A stretch of 64,000 nucleotides of DNA from Bacillota bacterium (GTDB lineage Bacteria; Bacillota; Clostridia; DUPQ01), in assembly GCA_036743175.1 (NCBI GenBank), contig DAINQB010000002.1, forward strand, positions 26,757 through 90,756, written 5' to 3'. Position 1 is the first letter of the stretch; every line of letters begins with the position of its first letter. The position numbers and the translations under genes were made by a program. Of the stretch, positions 9,838-59,204 are shown piece by piece. The notes beneath the pieces were generated by a model. The model saw only the letters and a list, made by a program, of their open reading frames with translations. It did not search any database and was not told the DNA's origin.

Positions 9838-10686
9838 ATGAAATCACTTATGGTTTTTCAAACGGATTTTACATACAAGGAAGGTGCGGTTTGTGCAATG
9901 TACGGGGTAGTCAAGAGTGTCGACCGGGAACTTGAGATTCTCGACGGAACCCATGAAATCCCTCAGTATGATACATGGAGTGCTTCCTACAGGCTGTATC
10001 AGTCAATGAAGTTCTGGCCCCGGGACACGGTTTTTGTTTCAGTCGTGGACCCCGGTGTAGGTACTCCCAGAAAGGCATCAGTTGCAAGAACCAGTGACGG
10101 TTACTATGTGGTTACTCCGGACAACGGCTCACTGACCCACCTGAAGAGACTTGCAGGGATTGAAGAAATACGCGAAATAGATGAAAGGATAAACAGGCTC
10201 AGGGGAAAAGGGACAGAGGAAGTTGCAATTTTCCATGGCCGGGATGTATTCGCATATTGCGGAGCAAGGCTCGCTGCCGGAATCATCAGTTTTGAGGAAG
10301 TCGGTCCATCATATCCGGTTGATGAAATAGTAGAGCACGAGATGCATAAACCGGAAATTTCCATGAACAGTGTCAGTGGCATAATAGAAATACCTGATCC
10401 AAACTTCGGCAACTCCTGGACAAATATCCCTCTCAAGGATTTCAGAACAGCTGGTTTTGAATATGGAGATATGGTTGACGTAGTTATAAAGAACAAGGAT
10501 GATGTGGTCTTTGATAAGAAAATCCTTTTCCACCAATCATTTGGGTTCGCACAAAAGGGTCAGCCGATGATATATAACAATGAACTCATGAACATTGCCT
10601 TTGCGGTCAACCAGGGAAGTTTCCTTGAAACTTATGGTATAGGTTATGGCAGTGACTGGACTGTCCGGTTCACAAAGGAGATATGA
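9838..10686 (+). CDS. SAM hydroxide adenosyltransferase family protein (DUF62, fluorinase/chlorinase-like fold), copy 1
   Basis: Hallmark motifs are present: FQTDFTYKEG, VFVSVVDPGVGT and FHGRDVFAY. The protein is 282 aa long, which is canonical for this family. Confidence 0.85.
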   Translation: MKSLMVFQTDFTYKEGAVCAMYGVVKSVDRELEILDGTHEIPQYDTWSASYRLYQSMKFWPRDTVFVSVVDPGVGTPRKASVARTSDGYYVVTPDNGSLTHLKRLAGIEEIREIDERINRLRGKGTEEVAIFHGRDVFAYCGARLAAGIISFEEVGPSYPVDEIVEHEMHKPEISMNSVSGIIEIPDPNFGNSWTNIPLKDFRTAGFEYGDMVDVVIKNKDDVVFDKKILFHQSFGFAQKGQPMIYNNELMNIAFAVNQGSFLETYGIGYGSDWTVRFTKEI

Positions 10687-11528
10687 CCATGAAGAAATTA
10701 TTGGTTTTTCAAAGTGACTTCGGTCTTGTTGACGGTGCTGTTGCAGCAATGTACGGAGTTGCCTTTGAAATAGATGAAAATCTAAGGGCATACAATCTCA
10801 CTCACGATATACCTCCATATAACGTATGGGAAGCATCTTACAGACTTTTTCAGGCAATGGAATACTGGCCCAGGGAAACGGTCTTTGTTTCCGTGGTGGA
10901 TCCCGGAGTCGGAAGCGGAAGGAAGAGTGTGGTAGCAAGAACAGTAAAGGACCAGTACGTGGTCACCCCTGACAATGGAACGCTGACACACCTTAAAAAA
11001 TATGTCGGCATCGCCAAAGTAAGGGAAATTGAGGAAAGCAGACACAGGCGGAAGGAATCAGAGCACTCACATACATTCCATGGCCGGGACGTCTATGCAT
11101 ATACAGGAGCAAAACTGGCTTCGGGCATCATATCATTTGAGGAAGTAGGTCCGGAACTGGATACCAATGGAATCATTGAACTTGAAACAGGCGATGTCAC
11201 AGTTTCAAGCGACAGTATAACCGGTTCAATAGACATTCTGGATGTGCGGTTCGGGTCTCTTTGGACAAATATCTCAAGGGAGGATTTCCTTGGACTTGGA
11301 TTCCAGTATGGAGACAAGGTCGAAGTTATAATCAGAAACGGTTCAAGAACCATATACAACAACAGGATCAGATTCGGAAAATCCTTTGCAGATGTTTATA
11401 TCAGTGAACAGATAATATATGTAAATTCGTTGTATAGGATGGCAATTGCAATAAACCAGGGCAATTTTGCAAAGGCATACAATATATCAACTGATCCCAG
11501 CTGGACAGTGGAGTTCAGGAAAGTATAG
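10683..11528 (+). CDS. SAM hydroxide adenosyltransferase family protein (DUF62), copy 2
   Basis: It carries FQSDFGLVDG, VFVSVVDPGVGS and FHGRDVYAY, and is a paralogue of the preceding gene. The two genes overlap by 4 nt. Confidence 0.85.
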   Translation: MTMKKLLVFQSDFGLVDGAVAAMYGVAFEIDENLRAYNLTHDIPPYNVWEASYRLFQAMEYWPRETVFVSVVDPGVGSGRKSVVARTVKDQYVVTPDNGTLTHLKKYVGIAKVREIEESRHRRKESEHSHTFHGRDVYAYTGAKLASGIISFEEVGPELDTNGIIELETGDVTVSSDSITGSIDILDVRFGSLWTNISREDFLGLGFQYGDKVEVIIRNGSRTIYNNRIRFGKSFADVYISEQIIYVNSLYRMAIAINQGNFAKAYNISTDPSWTVEFRKV

Positions 11529-11530
11529 AC

Positions 11531-12697
11531 TCAGTATCTTCCATAGGTCCTGGCGGTTTCAACCATTGCATGGATATTCTCAAAGGGAGTATCCCTTCCG
11601 CACTGGTCTCCAGTTGAAAGTATGAATCTGCCTCCTTCGGCAGCGTCGTCAATTGCGGCTTTACAGGCATCAACAACCTGCTTTGTTGTCCCATGCAGCA
11701 TAATATCAGTGGTATGAAGATTTCCCTTCAGTACCAGCTCATGTCCAAATTCTCTTTTCAGATCCCTGAGATTACAGTCTCCCATCGGTGAGATTTCAAG
11801 AGGGTCTATTACTGTCAGATCGGTCTCCTCGGCACAAATCCTGACCAGCTCCTTTTCAGGACCGCATGAATGAACATGAGATGGGATGCCGTGATCCTTA
11901 CATAGTTTTGCAATATGCTTTACAATTGGAAGTCCCAGGTCCCTGAAGATTTCCGGAGTCTGGAATACAAGGGTTCCGCTTGCTCCTGTGCAGATGAAAT
12001 CCGGAGGTTCTTGAAGCTCCATCAGCCAATTGAATCTTTTTGTAAACAACTCGATTTTCCTATCCCTTAATTCCCTGTATTTATTTGGATTATCATAATA
12101 CTCATATATCTGCGAAGGATTTCCAAGCAAGGCGGATGTACCACAGAAAACTCCAACCAAGCCCTGGATGCCCATTTTTCTCTTAACTGCTGCAAGAAGC
12201 TCAGCGCTTCTGTACTCTTTTTTAACATCATGGATTCTTATGGGATTAACGGGAGTCCGGGAAAGACCTATGGATTCAGGATCAAGCCTGTGTGTCGGTG
12301 GGTTGTCCCTGTAATATACTGTGACGGTATCTTCCCATGCCCTATTGTGAGTTTTGGACCTGCTAAGGTCATATCTCTGGGTTACTATTCTCTCATCATT
12401 TTGGAAAACTATCATCTCTTCCATGTTGTCTTCATATTCATCATGCATACGGACCGGAGCATACCCGTCCATAAGGGAATCAATGTCAAAATACTTTGCA
12501 GCATCAATATATGCCATATATATCGGGGGATCCTTGTAAAGATACAGCTGCCAGAAGGGTTTGCCTGTCAGCTTTGCAGGAATCATGTTTGATATGTCCG
12601 GAGCAACAGGAACACAGTCGGGAATACTACCAACAAGCGTAATTTCCAGTCTTTTCCTTGAATTCATTCTGTCCATATCCGTTAACCTCTGTTCCAT
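11531..12697 (-). CDS. uroporphyrinogen decarboxylase (URO-D) family protein, MtaA/CmuA-like methyltransferase fold
   Basis: The 388-aa protein has a URO-D-like TIM-barrel signature. It is paralogous to 49386-50420 and 61530-62675. Confidence 0.65.
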   Translation of the reverse strand: MEQRLTDMDRMNSRKRLEITLVGSIPDCVPVAPDISNMIPAKLTGKPFWQLYLYKDPPIYMAYIDAAKYFDIDSLMDGYAPVRMHDEYEDNMEEMIVFQNDERIVTQRYDLSRSKTHNRAWEDTVTVYYRDNPPTHRLDPESIGLSRTPVNPIRIHDVKKEYRSAELLAAVKRKMGIQGLVGVFCGTSALLGNPSQIYEYYDNPNKYRELRDRKIELFTKRFNWLMELQEPPDFICTGASGTLVFQTPEIFRDLGLPIVKHIAKLCKDHGIPSHVHSCGPEKELVRICAEETDLTVIDPLEISPMGDCNLRDLKREFGHELVLKGNLHTTDIMLHGTTKQVVDACKAAIDDAAEGGRFILSTGDQCGRDTPFENIHAMVETARTYGRY

Positions 12698-12833
12698 TAT
12701 ATATACTTTTCCACAAACATATGTGGATATCCATGTAAATCCTGTGCAAAGATTCGTCTCAAAACATTAAATACTGCATTTTATGTGGAAAACCTGTTTG
12801 TATCCTTGTATATCCTGTTCACATCAAATAATC

Positions 12834-12894
12834 ACCTGTCAGGAAAATATTTTCCTGACAGGTAGATATTTTCCTGACAGGTAGATATTTTCTT
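12834..12894. repeat. palindrome/tandem array, copy a: a 30-bp perfect palindrome followed by three 19-bp-period units of the AGGAAAATATTTTCCT family
   Basis: Positions 12834-12863 form the perfect palindrome CCTGTCAGGAAAATATTTTCCTGACAGG. Three 16-bp units lie at 12841, 12860 and 12879: AGGAAAATATTTTCCT, AGGTAGATATTTTCCT and AGGTAGATATTTTCTT. Confidence 0.8.
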
Positions 12895-12898
12895 TTCA

Positions 12899-12926
12899 TG
12901 AAAAAAGAGCCCCGGTACCGGGGCCC
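12899..12926 (-). terminator. intrinsic terminator of the carbamate kinase gene
   Basis: A 16-bp GC palindrome (GCCCCGGTACCGGGGC, 12909-12924) is followed on the minus strand by TTTTTT. Confidence 0.7.
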
Positions 12927-12941
12927 CATGATTGCTATAAG

Positions 12942-13892
12942 TCAGTGCGTGATAATTGTACCGGCTTCACCACGGATTGCCTTTTGCAGATTGTCGGGTG
13001 ATGTGATGATTGCTTTGCTTCCACCCTTTTCAAGGAACTGCAAAGCGGCTTCAATCTTGGGAAGCATGCTGCCCGGGGCAAAGTGTCCTTCATCTCTAAG
13101 CTTCTTCAGTTCCTTTACAGTGATTTCATGCAGCTTCAGTTCATTGGGCTTACCAAAATCTATACATACATTCTGTACAGCCGTCGAGATGATGAACACA
13201 TCGGCATTGAGAAGGTTCGCAAGCATTCCTGATGCATGGTCCTTGTCTATTACCGCATTTATTCCTGTGTAATGACTGTTCTCATCTATTGTCACAGGAA
13301 TTCCACCTCCGCCTACTGCAATTACTGTAAATCCGGACTTAACCAGCTTATCTATTGCGTCAATTTCGACTATGCTCTTTGGCATGGGTGAAGGAACAAC
13401 CCTTCTGTATCCCCTGTTGGAGTCTTCAATCACAACCCAGTCGGGATGGTCGTTTCTTATTTTTTCAATCTGCTCCGGTCCGTAGAATGAACCGATTGGT
13501 TTTGCAGGATTCTCAAAGGCCGGGTCATTGGCATCAACCTCAACCTGTGTAACGATGGTAACGGCATTTTTGACAATGTTCCTTCTGGCAAACTCATTGT
13601 GCAGCGCCTGCTGTATCTGGTATCCGAGTGCTCCCTGGGTATCTGCATCGCAGCTAACCAATGGAACGGGATGCATATGTTCAACTTCTTCGGCAATCTC
13701 GGAACGTCTCATTATGAATCCTACCTGAGGCCCGTTTCCATGGGTGACAACTACCTCATATCCCTCCTCAATCAGATCCACAATATAGCGGACCGTTTCA
13801 CATATCGCATCATATTGATCCGACACATTGACATGATCCTTGTCTCTTATCAGTGAGTTCCCGCCTATTGCAATGACGGCAAGTCTTGACAT
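12942..13892 (-). CDS. arcC: carbamate kinase
   Basis: The protein begins MSRLAVIAIGGNSL and has a carbamate kinase-like amino acid kinase fold over about 316 aa. It is adjacent to the ygeW-like gene. Confidence 0.9.
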   Translation of the reverse strand: MSRLAVIAIGGNSLIRDKDHVNVSDQYDAICETVRYIVDLIEEGYEVVVTHGNGPQVGFIMRRSEIAEEVEHMHPVPLVSCDADTQGALGYQIQQALHNEFARRNIVKNAVTIVTQVEVDANDPAFENPAKPIGSFYGPEQIEKIRNDHPDWVVIEDSNRGYRRVVPSPMPKSIVEIDAIDKLVKSGFTVIAVGGGGIPVTIDENSHYTGINAVIDKDHASGMLANLLNADVFIISTAVQNVCIDFGKPNELKLHEITVKELKKLRDEGHFAPGSMLPKIEAALQFLEKGGSKAIITSPDNLQKAIRGEAGTIITH

Positions 13893-53152: not shown

Positions 53153-53193
53153 GATTCCTCCACCTTGTTCCCTTTATGTGCTGTGTATAGTAA

Positions 53194-53221
53194 ATTGTAT
53201 CACCGGCAGTACATAAGTCAA
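53194..53221 (-). promoter_or_regulatory. sigma70-like promoter (TTGACT-N16-TACAAT) for nrdJ
   Basis: Read on the minus strand: TTGACT at 53221-53216 and TACAAT at 53199-53194. The UTR is about 35 nt. Confidence 0.5.
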
Positions 53222-53237
53222 ATTTATCTACCATCCT

Positions 53238-53286
53238 AATAATTACCTGTCAGGAAAATATTTTCCTGACAGGTAATTATTTAGTC
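53238..53286. repeat. palindrome/tandem array, copy b: a 44-bp perfect palindrome centred on AGGAAAATATTTTCCT plus one degenerate 19-bp-period unit
   Basis: Positions 53238-53281 form the perfect palindrome AATAATTACCTGTCAGGAAAATATTTTCCTGACAGGTAATTATT. A degenerate unit AGGTAATTATTTAGTC lies at 53271. Confidence 0.8.
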
Positions 53287-53289
53287 GGG

Positions 53290-53323
53290 TAAAAAAGGAT
53301 GCCGGTTCTATATTCCGGCATCC
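53290..53323 (-). terminator. intrinsic terminator of the secreted-protein gene
   Basis: A GGATGCCGG...CCGGCATCC hairpin is followed by TTTTTT on the minus strand. Confidence 0.7.
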
Positions 53324-53355
53324 CAATAGTGTTATGATCTGTGGCATTCAGATTT

Positions 53356-54015
53356 TTAATTACCGTCGGTTTCCCTGTCAACACCAGGGAATCTTCCACG
53401 CGGGCCACCAAACGAATCCATGTCACAGCCTGCAAAGGGAACTCTTCCACCCATCATGAACCCTGCGGTTCCTTCAGGCAGTTCTCCATTATCAATTTTT
53501 TCCTGAACAAGTGCTTCATGGAAATCCCTTATCTCAACCATCGCCGCTTCCAGGGCAGCTCTGGTCTCTTCATCTGCATCCCTGACAAGCAACCAGAATC
53601 CCATCGGTCTGTCATCCAATGCTTCCACTTCTTCCTGGGTAATGTAGCCTTCGATTACAAGTCCTGCGACCACTTCATCAACCTTGGCTTCCATAGCTTC
53701 GTGTATTTCTTCTGCAACAGCCCTTGCCTGTGCTAATGCTTCCTCATCAAATTCAGGTCTGGTTCCTCGTGGAAGACCACCCATTCTGCCGGGGCTACAG
53801 AAACCATCTTCATCTCTGTCACCTTTTATTGCATCCCACACCTTGCTGAAGATACCCGCTTCATCTGCAGTTATTGTTCCATCTTCTACCTTTTCTTCGA
53901 GAACTCTGCTGAAGGGATTAACCCACTGTCCGTCTGCAGTTGCGGCAAGCGCGATTGAACCTCCCAATGCAAATACTGCTATCAATGAAATTATAATAAT
54001 TACTTTTTTCTTCAT
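53356..54015 (-). CDS. secreted acidic protein, hypothetical (signal peptide). It is GC-rich relative to its neighbours.
   Basis: The signal peptide is MKKKVIIIISLIAVFALGGSIALAA, and the mature part is rich in Glu, Asp and Ala. It lies downstream of the histidine kinase and response regulator in the same orientation. Confidence 0.55.
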   Translation of the reverse strand: MKKKVIIIISLIAVFALGGSIALAATADGQWVNPFSRVLEEKVEDGTITADEAGIFSKVWDAIKGDRDEDGFCSPGRMGGLPRGTRPEFDEEALAQARAVAEEIHEAMEAKVDEVVAGLVIEGYITQEEVEALDDRPMGFWLLVRDADEETRAALEAAMVEIRDFHEALVQEKIDNGELPEGTAGFMMGGRVPFAGCDMDSFGGPRGRFPGVDRETDGN

Positions 54016-54069: not shown

Positions 54070-55401
54070 TTACAGATATTTTTTGGGGAAAGTTATGGTA
54101 ATCCTGGATCCTTCACCTTTCTTGCTTTCCACCTTGATGTCCCCGCCATGGGCTCCCATTACAGCCTTGGCTATGGACAACCCTATACCGGCTCCTCCGG
54201 TCTCCCTGCTCCTGGATTCATCTCCCCTGTAGAATCTGTTGAATATAAACGGCAGATCCTTTTCATCTATTCCAATACCTGTGTCTTCCACTACGCAAAC
54301 CGATTCATTTGGCCGGTCATAAAGACCAATCGTTATTGTCCCCCCTGTGTCTGTGTACTTGAATGCATTGGATAAGACATTTACAAATACCTGAAGCAGC
54401 CTGTCCTTGTTACCCGATATATGGCTGTCCGCTTCTATATTTTTTATGAAAGCAATATTCCTGTCATCTGCAACCGGTGCATAAACCATATAAAGGCTTT
54501 CGATTATTTCGGAAAGACTGACATCCTCAAATTTCATGTTCGCATAATCCGTTTCCAACAGTGTCAGGTCGGATAAATTGTTTACAAGACGTGTCAGTCT
54601 GTTGATCTGATCCAGCAGCACTGACATACGTTCATCGTCAGCCTTGTATATTCCATCCAGTATGGCTTCAATGTTGGTAGACAGAACCGCAATGGGTGTC
54701 TTTAGTTCGTGTACTATATCGTTGGACAAACGCTTTCTCATTTCCTCTTCGCGTTCCATCTGTCCTGCAAGCCTGTCAATGTCATCAGAGAGCTCCTTCA
54801 GCTCTCTTGCCCTGGAATCGGGCTTGGTCATTTTGTCAAATCTGTTCATTGCTATGTTGTTTACATTGTCCTTCAGCTGCATGATCGGTCTGTTGAATCT
54901 TCCGGAGAGCACGAATGCAGTGAATGTTGCAATCAGCATTGATATTACAAAGAGTACAGCATACATTATGTTGAGGGTTCTTACAAATTCAGCGTTACCG
55001 ATGTCATAAAGAGGGTCCTTTGCCCTTCCTATTATCAATGTATAGTCACCGATGTTATATTCAAGATTGACATACTCCGGCGAAGTGCCATCATCAGATT
55101 CTGATTGTATGACATTGGATTTGAAAATAACATCATCATCCTTTGAAAAAAGAATGTTTACCTCCTGCTGCCTGGACAGCATACCAAGGACCATGGGATA
55201 TGCATTCTGCGGGAAGTCTTCATCCAGAACCATGACCTCAACGACCTCCACTATTCTTTCATTCCTTTCAATATTGGATGCCTTTATAAACTCACGGAAG
55301 AATATCGAGGCACCGAAATTGGATACAAGTGTTGTAAGCAACAGCACTATCGCAACTGTTACAATGAAATATCTTGCAAACAATTTGTTCAGACTGGTCA
55401 T
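54070..55401 (-). CDS. sensor histidine kinase (two TM, HAMP, HisKA, HATPase_c)
   Basis: The H-box is VHELKTPIAV, followed by N, G1 and G2 boxes (GGAGIGLSIAK). Confidence 0.9.
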   Translation of the reverse strand: MTSLNKLFARYFIVTVAIVLLLTTLVSNFGASIFFREFIKASNIERNERIVEVVEVMVLDEDFPQNAYPMVLGMLSRQQEVNILFSKDDDVIFKSNVIQSESDDGTSPEYVNLEYNIGDYTLIIGRAKDPLYDIGNAEFVRTLNIMYAVLFVISMLIATFTAFVLSGRFNRPIMQLKDNVNNIAMNRFDKMTKPDSRARELKELSDDIDRLAGQMEREEEMRKRLSNDIVHELKTPIAVLSTNIEAILDGIYKADDERMSVLLDQINRLTRLVNNLSDLTLLETDYANMKFEDVSLSEIIESLYMVYAPVADDRNIAFIKNIEADSHISGNKDRLLQVFVNVLSNAFKYTDTGGTITIGLYDRPNESVCVVEDTGIGIDEKDLPFIFNRFYRGDESRSRETGGAGIGLSIAKAVMGAHGGDIKVESKKGEGSRITITFPKKYL

Positions 55402-56078
55402 TGTTCCTCCACGTATTTGTATCCAACACCAAATACAGTCCTTATGAACTCAGGTCTAGAAGGATCTGTTTCCACCTTCTGCCTTATGTTCTTTATATGG
55501 GAATCTATGGTTCTGCTCATTCCTTCATACTCATAACCAAGGGCATAAGTGATAAGCTGTTCCCGTGTATATGTCCTTCCCGGATTCCTGTACATGGTTG
55601 AAAGAATCTTGAACTCAATGGGAGTAAGGTCAATGGCCCTTCCCTCTTTTTTTACAGTGTAAAGGTTCTCATCAATCTCAATTCTTTTAGATGTATGTCT
55701 TTCTGGTGACTGGGATGTGCCTGCCCTTCTGAATATTGCCTTAACCCTGGCAACAAGTTCCTTGGGACTGAATGGTTTGGTCATATAATCATCAGCTCCC
55801 ATTTCAAGTCCGCTTATTTTTGAGTCCTCACCGCTTTTTGACGTCAGCATGATTATTGGAGTGTTATGGTTTTCCCGTATTACATTGCATACCTTCTCAC
55901 CCGGTATGTCGGGGAGCATCAGATCAAGTACAACAAGATCCGGCTTTTCATCATGAAAAACCTTGACGGCAGTAACCCCGTCACCTGCCTGGAGAACCTT
56001 GAAACCTTCTTTTTCAAGATAAAGGGAAGCAACTTCCCTGAGTTCCCTCTCATCATCTACCACTAGTATCTTGGTCAT
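55398..56078 (-). CDS. OmpR-family response regulator
   Basis: The receiver domain has the conserved Asp in VLDLMLPD, and the C-terminal domain is a winged helix. The start was chosen at MTKILVVDDE, which has an AGGAAG RBS. Confidence 0.9.
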   Translation of the reverse strand: MTKILVVDDERELREVASLYLEKEGFKVLQAGDGVTAVKVFHDEKPDLVVLDLMLPDIPGEKVCNVIRENHNTPIIMLTSKSGEDSKISGLEMGADDYMTKPFSPKELVARVKAIFRRAGTSQSPERHTSKRIEIDENLYTVKKEGRAIDLTPIEFKILSTMYRNPGRTYTREQLITYALGYEYEGMSRTIDSHIKNIRQKVETDPSRPEFIRTVFGVGYKYVEEQ

Positions 56079-56146
56079 AACATCACAACTTCCTGTTTGC
56101 ATCCACTGTTATTTTATCACTTGAATGAGGAATTTTTCAGTCCTAA

Positions 56147-58048
56147 TCATAGAACAGGCTTCTTGCTTCTGATGACTTCCCTCACATTATCTTCATACTG
56201 ACAGTAAAGCCTTCCCTTTTGATCAAATTCAAGGAGATTGACCAGTTTTTCCTCCAGCTGTTCGAATATCATTTCATCGGGGTCAAAACTGAACAGCTTA
56301 TTGGCTGTGACTATATAATACAGCCTGCCCGGACCTTTTCTTATAAACGAGACTTCCCATTTATAATCCTTTGACCTATTGAACTCAGCTAGTTTTTTCG
56401 TATATTCAACCGCTCCGGTTTGACTGTCCATTATGAAGAATGTGCTGTCTGCACAACCAAGCATCCTGCCGTCAGGCATCATGCAAAGTCCCCCTGCATT
56501 CTTGCAGCCCCTGACAGGCTCAACTTCGTAAATATATCTGTCATTTACTGTGTCAAAGGCAAAGACCGTACCGCTTTCATGCTTTGTATAACTGCCCAGT
56601 CCACCGCATACGGTTGTACCTCCGTAAAGAATTCCATCTTTGAATTCAAAGGAAACGATGCTTCTGGAATCCGAAAAGTCCTTTCTTACTGTATGTTCCT
56701 CACTGTTGATATCATAAACGGTAAGGGCTCCCTGCACATCCCCATAGTTGGGAATTGTTCCGATGTACAGTTTTTCATCGAAGACCTTCAGTGCAAAGGG
56801 CCTGTCCTGGTTTGCAGAGGTTTTCAAGTTGAATAGTTCCCTGGGATTACCCGGCATATCCCATGGTTCAGCGGGATCAAATTCATATATATATGCTCCG
56901 GGATATTTGCCGAAGTATACTTTTCCACAACCCGATGTTATGCCCTCACTCTGTCCGACTCCGTCATATTGGACTCCCGTATCAGTCTCAGGGTCATAGA
57001 TACAGATTCCACCACGAAGATATCCGCTGGCGTATATTTTACCTGACTCATGAAGATGAAGCTGTCGGATTTCGATTGATTTCCTCGGGATCTCAACATC
57101 AATAACTGATTTTTCATCAGTCCTTGAATTGTAAAGGTATATATAGCCTTCGAAACTGCTCACAAGTATAGATTCACCATCTGAATAAGGCCATATCCCC
57201 ATTATCACATCATCAAGATTGCTTATGAAATGATAAATTTGACGGTTTTCAGGGTCCACGGCATATCCGCCGTTCCTGCTTCCAATGATGAGCCTGTTCA
57301 GGTCAACACCCTTCGGAAGTATTTCCTCATGCTCACCAGGACATTTTATCCTGTCAACGATTTCACCGCTGTCCAGGTCAATGGCAATCATTTCCGATGA
57401 AAGGGACATATACGTATAAAGGGAATTATCGTGGAATCCAAATATTCTTGCAAAAGGCTCACGGCTGTATTCCAAAGGGAATATGTCTTTTACCGGACCT
57501 TCACCCTCCCTGTATTCAATTATATGACTATGGGATGATATGCTGGTATAGATGCTTTTACGCTCACGGTTATAAAGGACCAGCCTGACATAGTCTTCAG
57601 TCGGAACAATCTTTTCATCATAAAAGTCCAGACATTCATTGTTACCATTGTATTTGAATACAGCACAGTTGGGCCATGTGCCACCATAGACATTGTTTTC
57701 ATCATCTGCATCCAGGCTGAATATGAACTTTGCATTGGGCATGCTTTCAAAAAGGGTTTCGATTTTCTCTTCTACCGGGTTGAATCTATACAGCCCGCCA
57801 TTGACATAAGATCCAAAATAAATCCTGCCGTCGCTGGCTTCGCAGACACCCCATGATCCCGTAGCTCCAGGAGCATCCCCCCTGAACAGAATCTCTTTTC
57901 TATCCAGGCTTATGACCACGAAGGTCGCACACTCACCCTCAGCCAGAACACCATAGATTCTGTTATCACCCTTGTATACAGAATAACAGACTCCCTGCAT
58001 CAGGGTTTTCCTTACATTTACTGCCGTCTTTTCAAATTCAATCATCAC
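56147..58048 (-). CDS. beta-propeller repeat protein, hypothetical. It uses a GTG start.
   Basis: The 633-aa protein has recurring Y/W-rich blade-like segments (IYFGSY, VYGGTW, IYHF, LYIGT). It has a GGAAGGCGGAG RBS and a GTG/ATG start. Confidence 0.45.
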   Translation of the reverse strand: MMIEFEKTAVNVRKTLMQGVCYSVYKGDNRIYGVLAEGECATFVVISLDRKEILFRGDAPGATGSWGVCEASDGRIYFGSYVNGGLYRFNPVEEKIETLFESMPNAKFIFSLDADDENNVYGGTWPNCAVFKYNGNNECLDFYDEKIVPTEDYVRLVLYNRERKSIYTSISSHSHIIEYREGEGPVKDIFPLEYSREPFARIFGFHDNSLYTYMSLSSEMIAIDLDSGEIVDRIKCPGEHEEILPKGVDLNRLIIGSRNGGYAVDPENRQIYHFISNLDDVIMGIWPYSDGESILVSSFEGYIYLYNSRTDEKSVIDVEIPRKSIEIRQLHLHESGKIYASGYLRGGICIYDPETDTGVQYDGVGQSEGITSGCGKVYFGKYPGAYIYEFDPAEPWDMPGNPRELFNLKTSANQDRPFALKVFDEKLYIGTIPNYGDVQGALTVYDINSEEHTVRKDFSDSRSIVSFEFKDGILYGGTTVCGGLGSYTKHESGTVFAFDTVNDRYIYEVEPVRGCKNAGGLCMMPDGRMLGCADSTFFIMDSQTGAVEYTKKLAEFNRSKDYKWEVSFIRKGPGRLYYIVTANKLFSFDPDEMIFEQLEEKLVNLLEFDQKGRLYCQYEDNVREVIRSKKPVL

Positions 58049-58066
58049 TCCGCCTTCCGATAATCA

Positions 58067-58126
58067 CCTCTCAGGAAAATATTTTCCTGAGAGGAGAATA
58101 TTTTCCTCTGAGGTGAATATTCTCCT
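58067..58126. repeat. palindrome/tandem array, copy c: a 28-bp perfect palindrome followed by three 19-bp-period units
   Basis: Positions 58067-58094 form the perfect palindrome CCTCTCAGGAAAATATTTTCCTGAGAGG. Units lie at 58073, 58092 and 58111: AGGAAAATATTTTCCT, AGGAGAATATTTTCCT and AGGTGAATATTCTCCT. Confidence 0.8.
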
Positions 58127-58143
58127 CTGATGTAATTATTCCG

Positions 58144-58171
58144 AAAAAAACAACCCCGGTTTCCCGGGGTT
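58144..58171 (-). terminator. intrinsic terminator of kdgK
   Basis: A CCCCGG-TTTC-CCGGGG hairpin is followed by TTGTTTTTTT on the minus strand. Confidence 0.7.
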
Positions 58172-58175
58172 CTGG

Positions 58176-59204
58176 TTATCGCTGTACTCGTCCGGAACCG
58201 TCTCCGCCCATCAGGCTTACTACATCCTTGACGGATACCCTGTTGAAGTCCCCCGAAATAGTATGCTTCAGGCAGCTGGCTGCCACTGCAAACTCAAGGG
58301 CATCCTGAGGATCTTCATATTTTCTCAATCCGTAGATCAATCCACCGGCAAATGAATCACCACCGCCGACACGGTCTATGATATGGGTCATATCGTACTT
58401 CTTGCTGAGATAGAACTTTTTACCGTCGTTCAGACAAGCACTCCAGCCGTTGTGATCTGCACTCTTGCTTTCCCTCAGGGTTATTGCCATGTACTTAAGT
58501 GACGGATATTCCGCCATGACCTTATTGGAAAGAGCCTTATACTTTGAAGTATCAAGATGTCCGCCTTCTACATCAGCATCAATGCTTATACCGAGTGATT
58601 TCTGACAATCCTCCTCATTTGCAATGCCAACATTCACATATTTAACAAGTTCAGGCATCACTTCAGTGGCTTTTTTCCCATACTTCCAGAGTTTGTTCCT
58701 GAAGTTGAAATCACAGGATATGGTAATGCCTTTGTCAGCTGCTGCTTTTACAGACTCAAATGCCAGCTGTCTTGCAGAATCGCTTATTGCAGGCGTAATA
58801 CCCGTGATATGGAACCAGTCAACTCCATCGAAGACTTCATCCCAGTCTATGTCACCTGGTTTTGCAAGTGAAACAGCTGAATACGAACGGTCATATATTA
58901 CCTTGGAAGGCCTTTGTACAGAACCTGCCTCAAGATAATATATCCCGAGCCTGCCTTCGCCTGTTTTTATAAGTGAAACATCAACTCCAAAGCTCCGAAG
59001 CTCCCTTTTGCAGGCGTCCGCTATCTCATTGTCCGGCATGACCGTTACAAATGCCGCATCCATGCCAAAGTTTGCAAGGGAAACTGCCACATTGGCTTCT
59101 CCGCCGCCGAATGTCGCCTCAAACTTGGCACTTTGGAAGAATTTCTCTCTTTCCGGTGCCTTGAGCCTAAGCATTATCTCTCCGAAAGTCACCACTTTTT
59201 TCAT
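58176..59204 (-). CDS. kdgK: 2-dehydro-3-deoxygluconokinase (PfkB family sugar kinase)
   Basis: The PfkB signatures GGGEANVA and [12 protein letters not shown] are present. It is adjacent to the KDPG aldolase gene. Confidence 0.85.

Follow-up and report, generated by a model that had tools for sequence, protein, structure and literature searches.

A terminator-adjacent family of palindromic 19-bp tandem repeats in an uncultured Clostridia bacterium, with one array upstream of the ribonucleotide reductase gene nrdJ

Introduction

Several kinds of short repeat occupy the gaps between bacterial genes. The REP sequences (also called PU) and BIMEs of Enterobacteria and Pseudomonas are short, palindromic and extragenic, occur in many copies and, in the case of REPINs, are mobilised by RAYT transposases. 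The mycobacterial MIRU have units of 40-100 bp, lie within operons and are neither palindromic nor attached to terminators. Pneumococcal BOX elements are modular (boxA-boxB(n)-boxC) and strain-variable, and the identity of their neighbouring genes led at first to the proposal that they are regulatory (PMC3049150). SPRITE, another interspersed repeat, resembles a terminator; its duplex of 18-20 bp carries a T/U-rich tail, and it is enriched just 3' of genes (PMC3049150). Here, we describe palindromic tandem repeats from a 64-kb stretch of DNA of a Clostridia bacterium (contig DAINQB010000002.1; the whole stretch is called the window), which contains three arrays, termed copies a, b and c. Copy b is a perfect palindrome upstream of nrdJ, the gene of a class II, B12-dependent ribonucleotide reductase, and an earlier note on the window had suggested that it might control this gene.

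The repeats are high-copy, intergenic, terminator-adjacent, modular palindromic tandem arrays, with a variable number of units and a consensus specific to each genome. The family is best read as a new, hairpin-capable interspersed repeat of the REP/BIME/BOX-like kind, with a variable number of units. With a probability of roughly three in four, copy b is one locus of this lineage-specific family of short interspersed intergenic repeats and not a dedicated nrdJ or corrinoid control site.

Results

The palindrome upstream of nrdJ is a two-unit tandem array

Copy b consists of AATAATTACCTGTCAGGAAAAT followed by ATTTTCCTGACAGGTAATTATT, two 22-nt arms (53238-53259 and 53260-53281) that are 100% complementary and have no spacer between them. 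The perfect 44-bp palindrome described in the earlier note is therefore real; its start had been placed correctly and its end, given as 53286, overshoots by 5 nt. All window genes relevant to the arrays are on the minus strand, where the order at copy b is the gene for a 219-aa protein, its terminator, 9 nt, the palindrome, 16 nt, the promoter and nrdJ. The terminator has its stems at 53297-53305 and 53315-53323 and its T-tract at 53291-53296. The palindrome thus lies just after a terminator and upstream of the nrdJ -35 element, as had been said, at a distance of 16 bp instead of about 20 bp. The promoter had also been read correctly as TTGACT-N16-TACAAT and has a TG extension in addition.

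The window contains the 30-nt core of the palindrome three times, as exact copies at 12834 and 53245 and as a copy with 3 mismatches at 58066; no chance matches are expected, as judged from 100 dinucleotide-preserving shuffles. The sequence of copy b is also present in an independent assembly (L015; metagenome contigs are cited by L numbers), that of copy a in seven assemblies, all identical, and that of copy c in L003-L005. The lack of matches in the shuffles and the recovery of the same sequence from independent assemblies rule out chance or an assembly artefact. The note had been right to call the sequence a repeated intergenic element and to place copy a upstream of a URO-D-like gene. It overlooked copy c, the 19-bp internal periodicity and the genome-wide spread.

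A 19-bp period was detected at all three window loci, independently by a repeat finder and by Tandem Repeats Finder (TRF). The unit is composed of a 9-bp GC-rich box, CCTSWSAGG, and an AT spacer of 10 bp with AATATT at its centre; an alternative reading of the lattice is a 16-bp dyad, AGGnnAATATTnnCCT, with 3-bp linkers. All catalogued copies end in the inverted termini AATAATYA and TRATTATT. In the usual arrangement, one unit stands opposite a run of oppositely oriented units, and the junction between them is the palindromic AAAAT/ATTTT. When only two units face each other across such a junction, the result is a perfect palindrome of 44 bp. Parsed as such an array, copy b reads AATAATTA-CCTGTCAGG-AAAATATTTT-CCTGACAGG-TAATTATT. 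The catalogued arrays have two to five clear boxes, apart from a one-box form in L039 and an array of at least six boxes in one strain (L025).

Some loci also contain 49-bp modules, each formed by a one-box element (for example, ATAATCAC-N7-GTAAATAT) and a conserved linker of ~24 nt. One-box modules with a 49-bp period and a linker containing GGTTAG...ATAAC are found in L026, L052, L023, L047, L021 and L007. Two to three tandem copies of the 49-bp modules separate the terminator from the 19-bp array in L026 (2077-2197), L052 (540-674) and L009 (922-1053). The mirror junction, judged by eye, is distal to the terminator in 9 arrays and proximal in 3, and hence no strict rule ties its orientation to the terminator.

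The arrays are intergenic and attached to terminators

Metagenome contigs were scanned with a degenerate pattern of the two-unit form, CCTNNNAGGWRRATATYYWCCTNNNAGG. This returned 47 loci, nearly all from anaerobic-digester-type samples that also contain this organism; removal of orthologous duplicates and of five unrelated matches left 33 distinct loci of the family, which were assigned to the same organism. The same scan of 185,579 species-representative genomes gave only two unrelated terminator-like hairpins (one in Bacillus and one in a metagenome-assembled genome of Ruminococcus), and the family therefore seems confined to this lineage. The unrelated metagenome matches include a GC-rich perfect palindrome, GGCCCTCCTAGTAGGAGGATATCCTCCTACTAGGAGGGCC (L010 3911, L020 8307, L031 678), on near-identical contigs from other samples (one of them brine) with many other tandem repeats around it. 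Several contigs start or end inside an array (L006 1-160, the end of L008, L025 1-120, L054 1-54 and L061 1-30). As arrays break short-read assemblies, the copy number of the family is probably underestimated.

All 33 loci are intergenic, and no open reading frame of at least 90 aa spans any of them. At 22 of the 33, the T-tail of a terminator that points at the array ends no more than 25 nt from it, a test passed by 13% of random intergenic placements (binomial p = 2e-12). At most of the other loci, between one and three 49-bp modules intervene between a terminator and the array. Each window array lies a few nt beyond the intrinsic terminator of the upstream minus-strand gene. Copy a is located between the terminator of an amino-acid-kinase gene and the conserved promoter region of the URO-D-like gene, and copy c occupies the entire gap from the terminator of a PfkB gene to the ribosome-binding site and ATG of a gene for a 632-aa protein.

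The genes beside the arrays have no common functional theme. They encode MatE, an ABC permease, SecDF, AcrB, an amidohydrolase, BacA, a Bmp-family binding protein, an M32 carboxypeptidase, an ECF S-component, TetR and a PHP-domain protein, and also include a second OmpR-type regulator (L046), tRNA-Leu(GAG), valS and response regulators.

A plasmid, phage or virus origin was ruled out, since blastn of the element against plasmid and phage collections found no match and two scans of viral contigs gave only one unrelated AT-rich chance match. CRISPR arrays or iterons were rejected as well; there are no unique spacers, and the arrays are dispersed on a housekeeping chromosome beside ligA, valS, amtB and nrdJ. 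The termini resemble the terminal inverted repeats of a MITE (miniature inverted-repeat transposable element), with AATAATYACCT at one end and AGGTRATTATT at the other. A MITE with a parent insertion sequence was nevertheless judged unlikely: inspection revealed no target-site duplication, and in the part of the genome searched no distant pair of termini flanks a gene, every terminal motif is within or beside an array and none flanks a gene-sized element.

Other intergenic repeats were met on the same contigs. Another repeat, at L009 8519-8763 (identical to L036 6688-6932), has a 37-nt unit, TGGGACGGCTTTGCGAAGCAAAACGTCCCTTTTTATT, in 6.6 tandem copies, and each copy resembles a small intrinsic terminator hairpin with its T-tail. 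Intergenic tandem repeats with a 34-nt period are present at L018 12400-12500 and L055 15739-15818 (units TTTTTTACATTCACCCCAGGGGTAAAAGTCAAA, three copies, and CCCTAGGGACAAATGTTCAAAAAAGCACAAAACA, 2.4 copies), which suggests that the clade is rich in small intergenic repeat families.

Close relatives keep the nrdJ promoter and lack the palindrome

Syntenic relatives were reached via nrdJ homologues: L053/L054 and L058 (84% identity), L057 (78%) and L055/L056 (77%, a 2.45-Mb contig). The nrdJ promoter, TTGACW-16-TGATACAAT, is kept in all four (L053, L055, L057 and L058), and the palindrome is absent from all four. They are homologous to the window at the nucleotide level from 53230 onwards, a point 8 nt short of the palindrome edge at 53238. 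In a strain that is 97.8% identical (L015), copy b is retained. The position of copy b is taken in most relatives by other genes, NusG_II and Hpre_diP_synt_I or, in L057, a Metallophos gene. Two or three extra genes lie between the 219-aa gene and nrdJ in L053 (7417-10000), L055 (8863-10000) and L058 (4550-6031), namely NusG_II and Hpre_diP_synt_I on the opposite strand and, in L053, a DUF4143 ATPase in addition. These genes have been lost from the window species, where copy b lies at the junction (window 53282-53355). The conserved control region of nrdJ does not include the palindrome; it consists of the promoter and the adjoining downstream sequence.

A palindrome 16 bp upstream of a -35 element, with a second copy preceding a URO-D/MtaA-like gene, invites its reading as an operator or, along the lines of the earlier note, as a site for an activator or anti-activator of nrdJ and, together with copy a, of corrinoid-linked genes. 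The note itself held that a lack of the palindrome upstream of nrdJ in close relatives would speak against such a site. Its absence from four close relatives that retain the promoter, together with the 33 or more loci beside unrelated genes, one of them a tRNA gene, makes a site dedicated to nrdJ very improbable. The link to corrinoids was rejected as well. No Rfam family reached the gathering score anywhere in the window, so that it contains no cobalamin riboswitch (the palindrome itself gave only sub-threshold generic hairpin matches), and the neighbours of the other copies are unrelated. A transcription-factor regulon fails the same comparison, as orthologous nrdJ genes lack the site and the targets are functionally incoherent.

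The conserved sequences upstream of the URO-D-like gene lie outside copy a and likewise count against an operator role of the array. Between copy a and this gene, motifs are conserved in three species (window 12700-12825 on the minus strand, L059 9760-9900 and L061 30-160): a dyad, TTTCCACA-N4-6-TGTGGAAAA, and two or three copies of (G/A)CACAGGAWWTAC. These motifs, and not the array, look like the true operator sites of the gene.

NrdR boxes, through which ribonucleotide reductase operons are normally repressed, would also be AT-centred 16-bp palindromes near an nrd promoter. The consensus of Rodionov and Gelfand is reportedly acaCwAtATaTwGtgt, and the core of the element, AGGAAAATATTTTCCT, lacks C4 and G13 of this consensus. 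The spacing of 19 bp departs from the 31-32 bp of NrdR boxes; the element, 16-59 bp upstream of the -35, does not overlap the promoter, is missing from L053, L055, L057 and L058 and is present at non-nrd loci. With consensus, spacing and position all unfit, the probability of this identification is close to nil. The nrdJ leader of L057 (9935-10000) contains two NrdR-box-like palindromes, CAATATATTG and CACTATATTTTGTG, with centres 32 bp apart, that by eye overlap and follow the -10. These canonical-looking boxes downstream of the -10 mark the true location of NrdR sites in the clade. A conserved stretch, ACAATTTAnTATACAC, is found at the corresponding position in the window (53160-53200), L053 and L058.

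Arrays at orthologous positions carry species-specific boxes

The other two window arrays have counterparts in a related species. In L053, array c' occupies the same place as copy c, between the same PfkB terminator and the same ribosome-binding site and ATG, and is built from 8.3 direct units of AAAATATTTACGYCTGGGG. The contig L061, from the same sample as L054, begins inside an array ending in ...CGACAGGGGTAATTATT; its URO-D-like protein is 76% identical to that of the window, and the distance from the end of the array to the conserved downstream motif equals that of copy a. No array is present at the position of copy a in L059 (78%) or L062 (69%), the position of copy c is filled by an unrelated spacer of ~70-90 nt in L055 and L057, and the more distant relatives examined have no arrays at these positions.

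The boxes of the related species (L053 and L061; 76-84%) are CGYCTGGGG and CGACAGGGG. The consensus is CGNCWGGGG there and CCTSWSAGG in the window. All three arrays of the window have the CCT...AGG type of box, and the L053-type box occurs in the window organism only within 49-bp modules. The boxes of these modules (CCCCAGACG, CACCTGGTG and CGACTGGTG) resemble that of L053. Arrays a and c are most simply taken as orthologous between the two species, with a box peculiar to each genome. Gilson et al. are said to have reported in 1987 that the palindromic units of enterobacteria have a species-specific consensus at shared positions.

Between two strains that are ~98% identical, seven orthologous arrays show 0 mismatches in 365 positions, compared with 54 in 2767 in the flanks of +/-200 nt. 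An eighth orthologous pair differs in the number and content of units, with at least six units in L025 and five in L050.

In both species, 13-16 nt separate the end of array c from the start codon of the 632-aa gene (window 58043-58060; L053 2716-2731), and a terminator lies directly upstream of the array. No sigma-70 promoter was detected inside array c. The operon of the 632-aa gene and the two-component system would either be expressed by read-through or have its promoter function supplied by the array.

Copy c precedes the operon of an OmpR-family response regulator in two species, which makes a regulon of this adjacent regulator an attractive idea. More generally, the arrays might be a binding lattice for an abundant lineage-specific DNA-binding protein, such as a nucleoid-associated protein, a global regulator or the OmpR-family regulator downstream of copy c, with a box that co-evolves with the protein. 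The species-specific boxes at orthologous sites fit such a lattice, as do the resemblance of the 16-bp dyad AGGnnAATATTnnCCT to a dimer site, the position of copy c against a two-component operon in two species and the location of another array (L046) next to the second OmpR-type regulator. The CCT, AGG and AATATT columns, moreover, are invariant across 27 distinct core palindromes. OmpR/PhoB sites are typically 10-11-bp direct repeats, to which the 19-bp period does not conform, and with 33 unrelated loci and a variable number of units a regulon of the adjacent regulator is unlikely. For a lattice of any kind, the neighbouring genes have no functional theme, the unit number varies between strains, and close relatives have the genes and promoters without the sites. 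The arrays also track terminators more consistently than any fixed distance to promoters (0-150 nt). We therefore consider the lattice improbable.

Paired changes maintain the palindrome

The 27 core palindromes were aligned and pairs were counted under the 20-bp hairpin. Across these cores, 91.9% of cells are paired, and six pairs have changed on both sides. At box position 4 and its mirror, for example, 17 cores have C-G, 8 have G-C and 2 are unpaired. None of 500 shuffles (0.091 +/- 0.012) reached the covariation score of 0.166, and pairing falls to ~50% when the partner is shifted by one column. L033 (AATAAACACCT...AGGTGTTTATT) and L019 (AATAAATACCT...AGGTATTTATT) each have a unique double change that leaves the palindrome perfect. 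Many of the covariation counts may be traceable to a few ancestral subfamilies. The paired changes fit either selection on the hairpin or templated correction of one arm by the other; they are not expected of the independent half-sites of a dimeric regulator.

The suggestion of a cruciform or structural element held to the extent that a very stable hairpin or cruciform is possible in silico. As single-stranded DNA, copy b is predicted to fold at -19.5 kcal/mol (z = -11.9), and the RNA folds predicted for its two strands have -36 and -34 kcal/mol. In a simple scan, hairpins were terminator-like in copy a (both strands) and copy c (plus strand) and not in copy b, whose tail, UAAUUAUU, is only moderately U-rich.

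Arrays of this kind could be selected as cis-acting transcription punctuation, that is, as bidirectional backup terminators or insulators with a function for the host, a view that is compatible with an origin as a repeat family. The 22 of 33 arrays within 25 nt of a canonical terminator, the hairpins with ATTATTT or AGATATTTT tails that scored as terminator-like in copies a and c, the predicted stability of the copy b RNA hairpin on both strands, the freedom of arrays from mismatches between strains (0/365 vs 54/2767) and the precedent of SPRITE (PMC3049150) speak for punctuation. Against it, the tails are only moderately U-rich and copy b is not called terminator-like, a good terminator already stands ahead of each array, the direct-repeat array of L053 is unable to form a hairpin, and a variable number of units is not expected of a terminator. 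On balance, we regard selected punctuation as possible but doubtful.

Features of the window

The features that surround the three arrays are collected in Table 1. Elsewhere in the window (9838-11528), two neighbouring paralogous SAM_HAT-domain genes (282 and 281 aa, with stretches of DNA 72-77% identical) adjoin an ECF-type transporter gene set.

Table 1. Arrays, terminators, promoter and genes at the three loci, in window coordinates.
Feature	Position	Strand	Basis or context
Copy a, 19-bp units (three intact, one degenerate)	12827..12900	.	Repeat finder, TRF
Intrinsic terminator of amino-acid-kinase gene (12942-13892)	12896..12927	-	Terminator detection; abuts copy a
URO-D-family gene, 381 aa per public records	11531..12676	-	Downstream of copy a
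Copy b, two-unit array, perfect 44-bp palindrome	53238..53281	.	Sequence, repeat search, folding
Gene for 219-aa protein, signal-peptide-like N-terminus	53356-54015	-	Upstream of copy b
Intrinsic terminator of 219-aa protein gene	53291..53324	-	Read directly; terminator detection
nrdJ promoter, TTGACT-16-(TG)TACAAT	53194..53221	-	Promoter scan; 16 bp downstream of copy b
nrdJ, class II B12-dependent ribonucleotide reductase, 740 aa	50930..53152	-	Pfam Ribonuc_red_lgN, Ribonuc_red_lgC, TSCPD
Copy c, four units, boxes at 58067, 58086, 58105 and 58124	58059..58140	.	Repeat finder, TRF
Intrinsic terminator of PfkB-family kinase gene (58176-59204)	58144..58171	-	T-tract ends ~3 nt before copy c
Operon of 632-aa beta-propeller-like protein and two-component system	54070..58045	-	Downstream of copy c
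OmpR-family response regulator	55398-56102	-	Copy c operon
Histidine kinase	54070-55401	-	Copy c operon

Discussion

A long perfect palindrome beside a promoter is easily taken for an operator in annotation, and at nrdJ that reading is almost certainly wrong. Pneumococcal BOX elements were once misread in the same way (PMC3049150). The arrays are better explained as interspersed repeats that would behave like the hairpin-forming DNA of REP/BIME and of pneumococcal BOX and SPRITE. They may persist in the genome and be kept homogeneous by a putative trans-acting enzyme, by gene conversion or by both, and would expand and contract by slipped-strand events. The interval that separates a terminator from the following promoter would be a safe site, which we propose as the reason why the arrays are tolerated. 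For nrdJ, no more than a generic effect would be expected: copy b could act between the upstream gene and the promoter as a weak, bidirectional insulator or backup terminator or, alternatively, as an AT-rich cruciform-prone tract upstream of the -35 element, at about -50 to -95.

Several observations weigh against an interspersed repeat as the explanation. The 33 loci were inspected for target-site duplications and none was found, nor was a clean empty site seen, so that mobility is inferred. A phmmer search of all open reading frames of ~570 kb with an IS608 TnpA query found no match to a RAYT or IS200-like transposase; this is a weak negative that covers part of the genome. No transposase domain is present among the window proteins scanned. 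The GTAG/GTGG hallmark of REP is absent, all catalogued copies having the AATAATYA/TRATTATT termini instead. Half of the core columns (22 of 44) do not vary, and between strains the arrays match or exceed their flanks in conservation, which could reflect selection for protein binding instead. Array c' of L053 is purely direct and has no palindrome, so that hairpin formation is not the sole constraint on the family. Finally, copy c replaces the entire promoter region of the two-component operon in two species, which hints at a function at that place.

In a more speculative and rather unlikely proposal, the arrays are the cis half of a system inherited vertically in this Clostridia clade. A putative terminator-targeting protein would recognise the box and the AATATT spacer and would place or maintain arrays behind intrinsic terminators. 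Its co-evolution with the box might explain the different boxes (CCTSWSAGG vs CGNCWGGGG) at orthologous arrays, and single arrays could have been co-opted locally, as in the promoter region of the 632-aa/two-component operon in both species. The partnership would be REPIN-RAYT-like, with a non-REP architecture and with terminators as targets. If a mobilising or binding partner were found, the REPIN-RAYT type of relationship between host and element would be extended to Firmicutes, and the targeting of the slot behind terminators could be explained. As an interspersed repeat, the family adds to repeat biology an example from uncultured Clostridia, with an unusual 19-bp lattice that has two dyad axes per period and a strong attachment to terminators.

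Among described systems, REP and BIME share several features with the family. Their inverted doublets form long hairpins, their clusters are mosaics in which units alternate in orientation and linkers are conserved, both of which occur here, and their consensus is species-specific at shared intergenic positions while complementarity of the arms is kept. They differ in that the 5' foot of a REP hairpin carries the GTAG/GTGG motif, for which there is no counterpart here, and in that REP is a single imperfect hairpin, in contrast to the strict 19-bp lattice with two dyad axes per period. REP sequences are located inside 3' untranslated regions before terminators, whereas the arrays described here come after them. 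REP has a cognate RAYT (a Y1 HUH transposase), encoded by a single-copy gene with the repeats on its flanks, and none was found in the sequence searched here (~570 kb, with the weak query). Group 1 RAYTs occur in Clostridia (PMC5581495), and a REPIN-like partner is therefore conceivable, none having been seen in the sequence examined here.

With BOX, the family has in common fixed terminal modules around variable tandem internal modules, an intergenic location and polymorphism between strains. boxB is ~45 bp long, as opposed to the 19-bp unit, and the termini differ from the published description (PMC3049150). No sequence similarity is evident from that description; BOX also has target-site duplications, of which none were seen here, and belongs to a different host clade. 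SPRITE differs from the element described here, which follows a canonical terminator distinct from itself, has the same symmetry on either strand and consists of tandem units. NrdR boxes are similar as 16-bp AT-centred palindromes near an nrd gene and dissimilar in consensus, spacing, position and distribution. MIRU-type variable-number tandem repeats likewise form dispersed intergenic loci of tandem units with strain-variable copy number. In MIRU, the units are 40-100 bp long, non-palindromic, placed within operons and free of any attachment to terminators, and in each of these respects the family described here differs.

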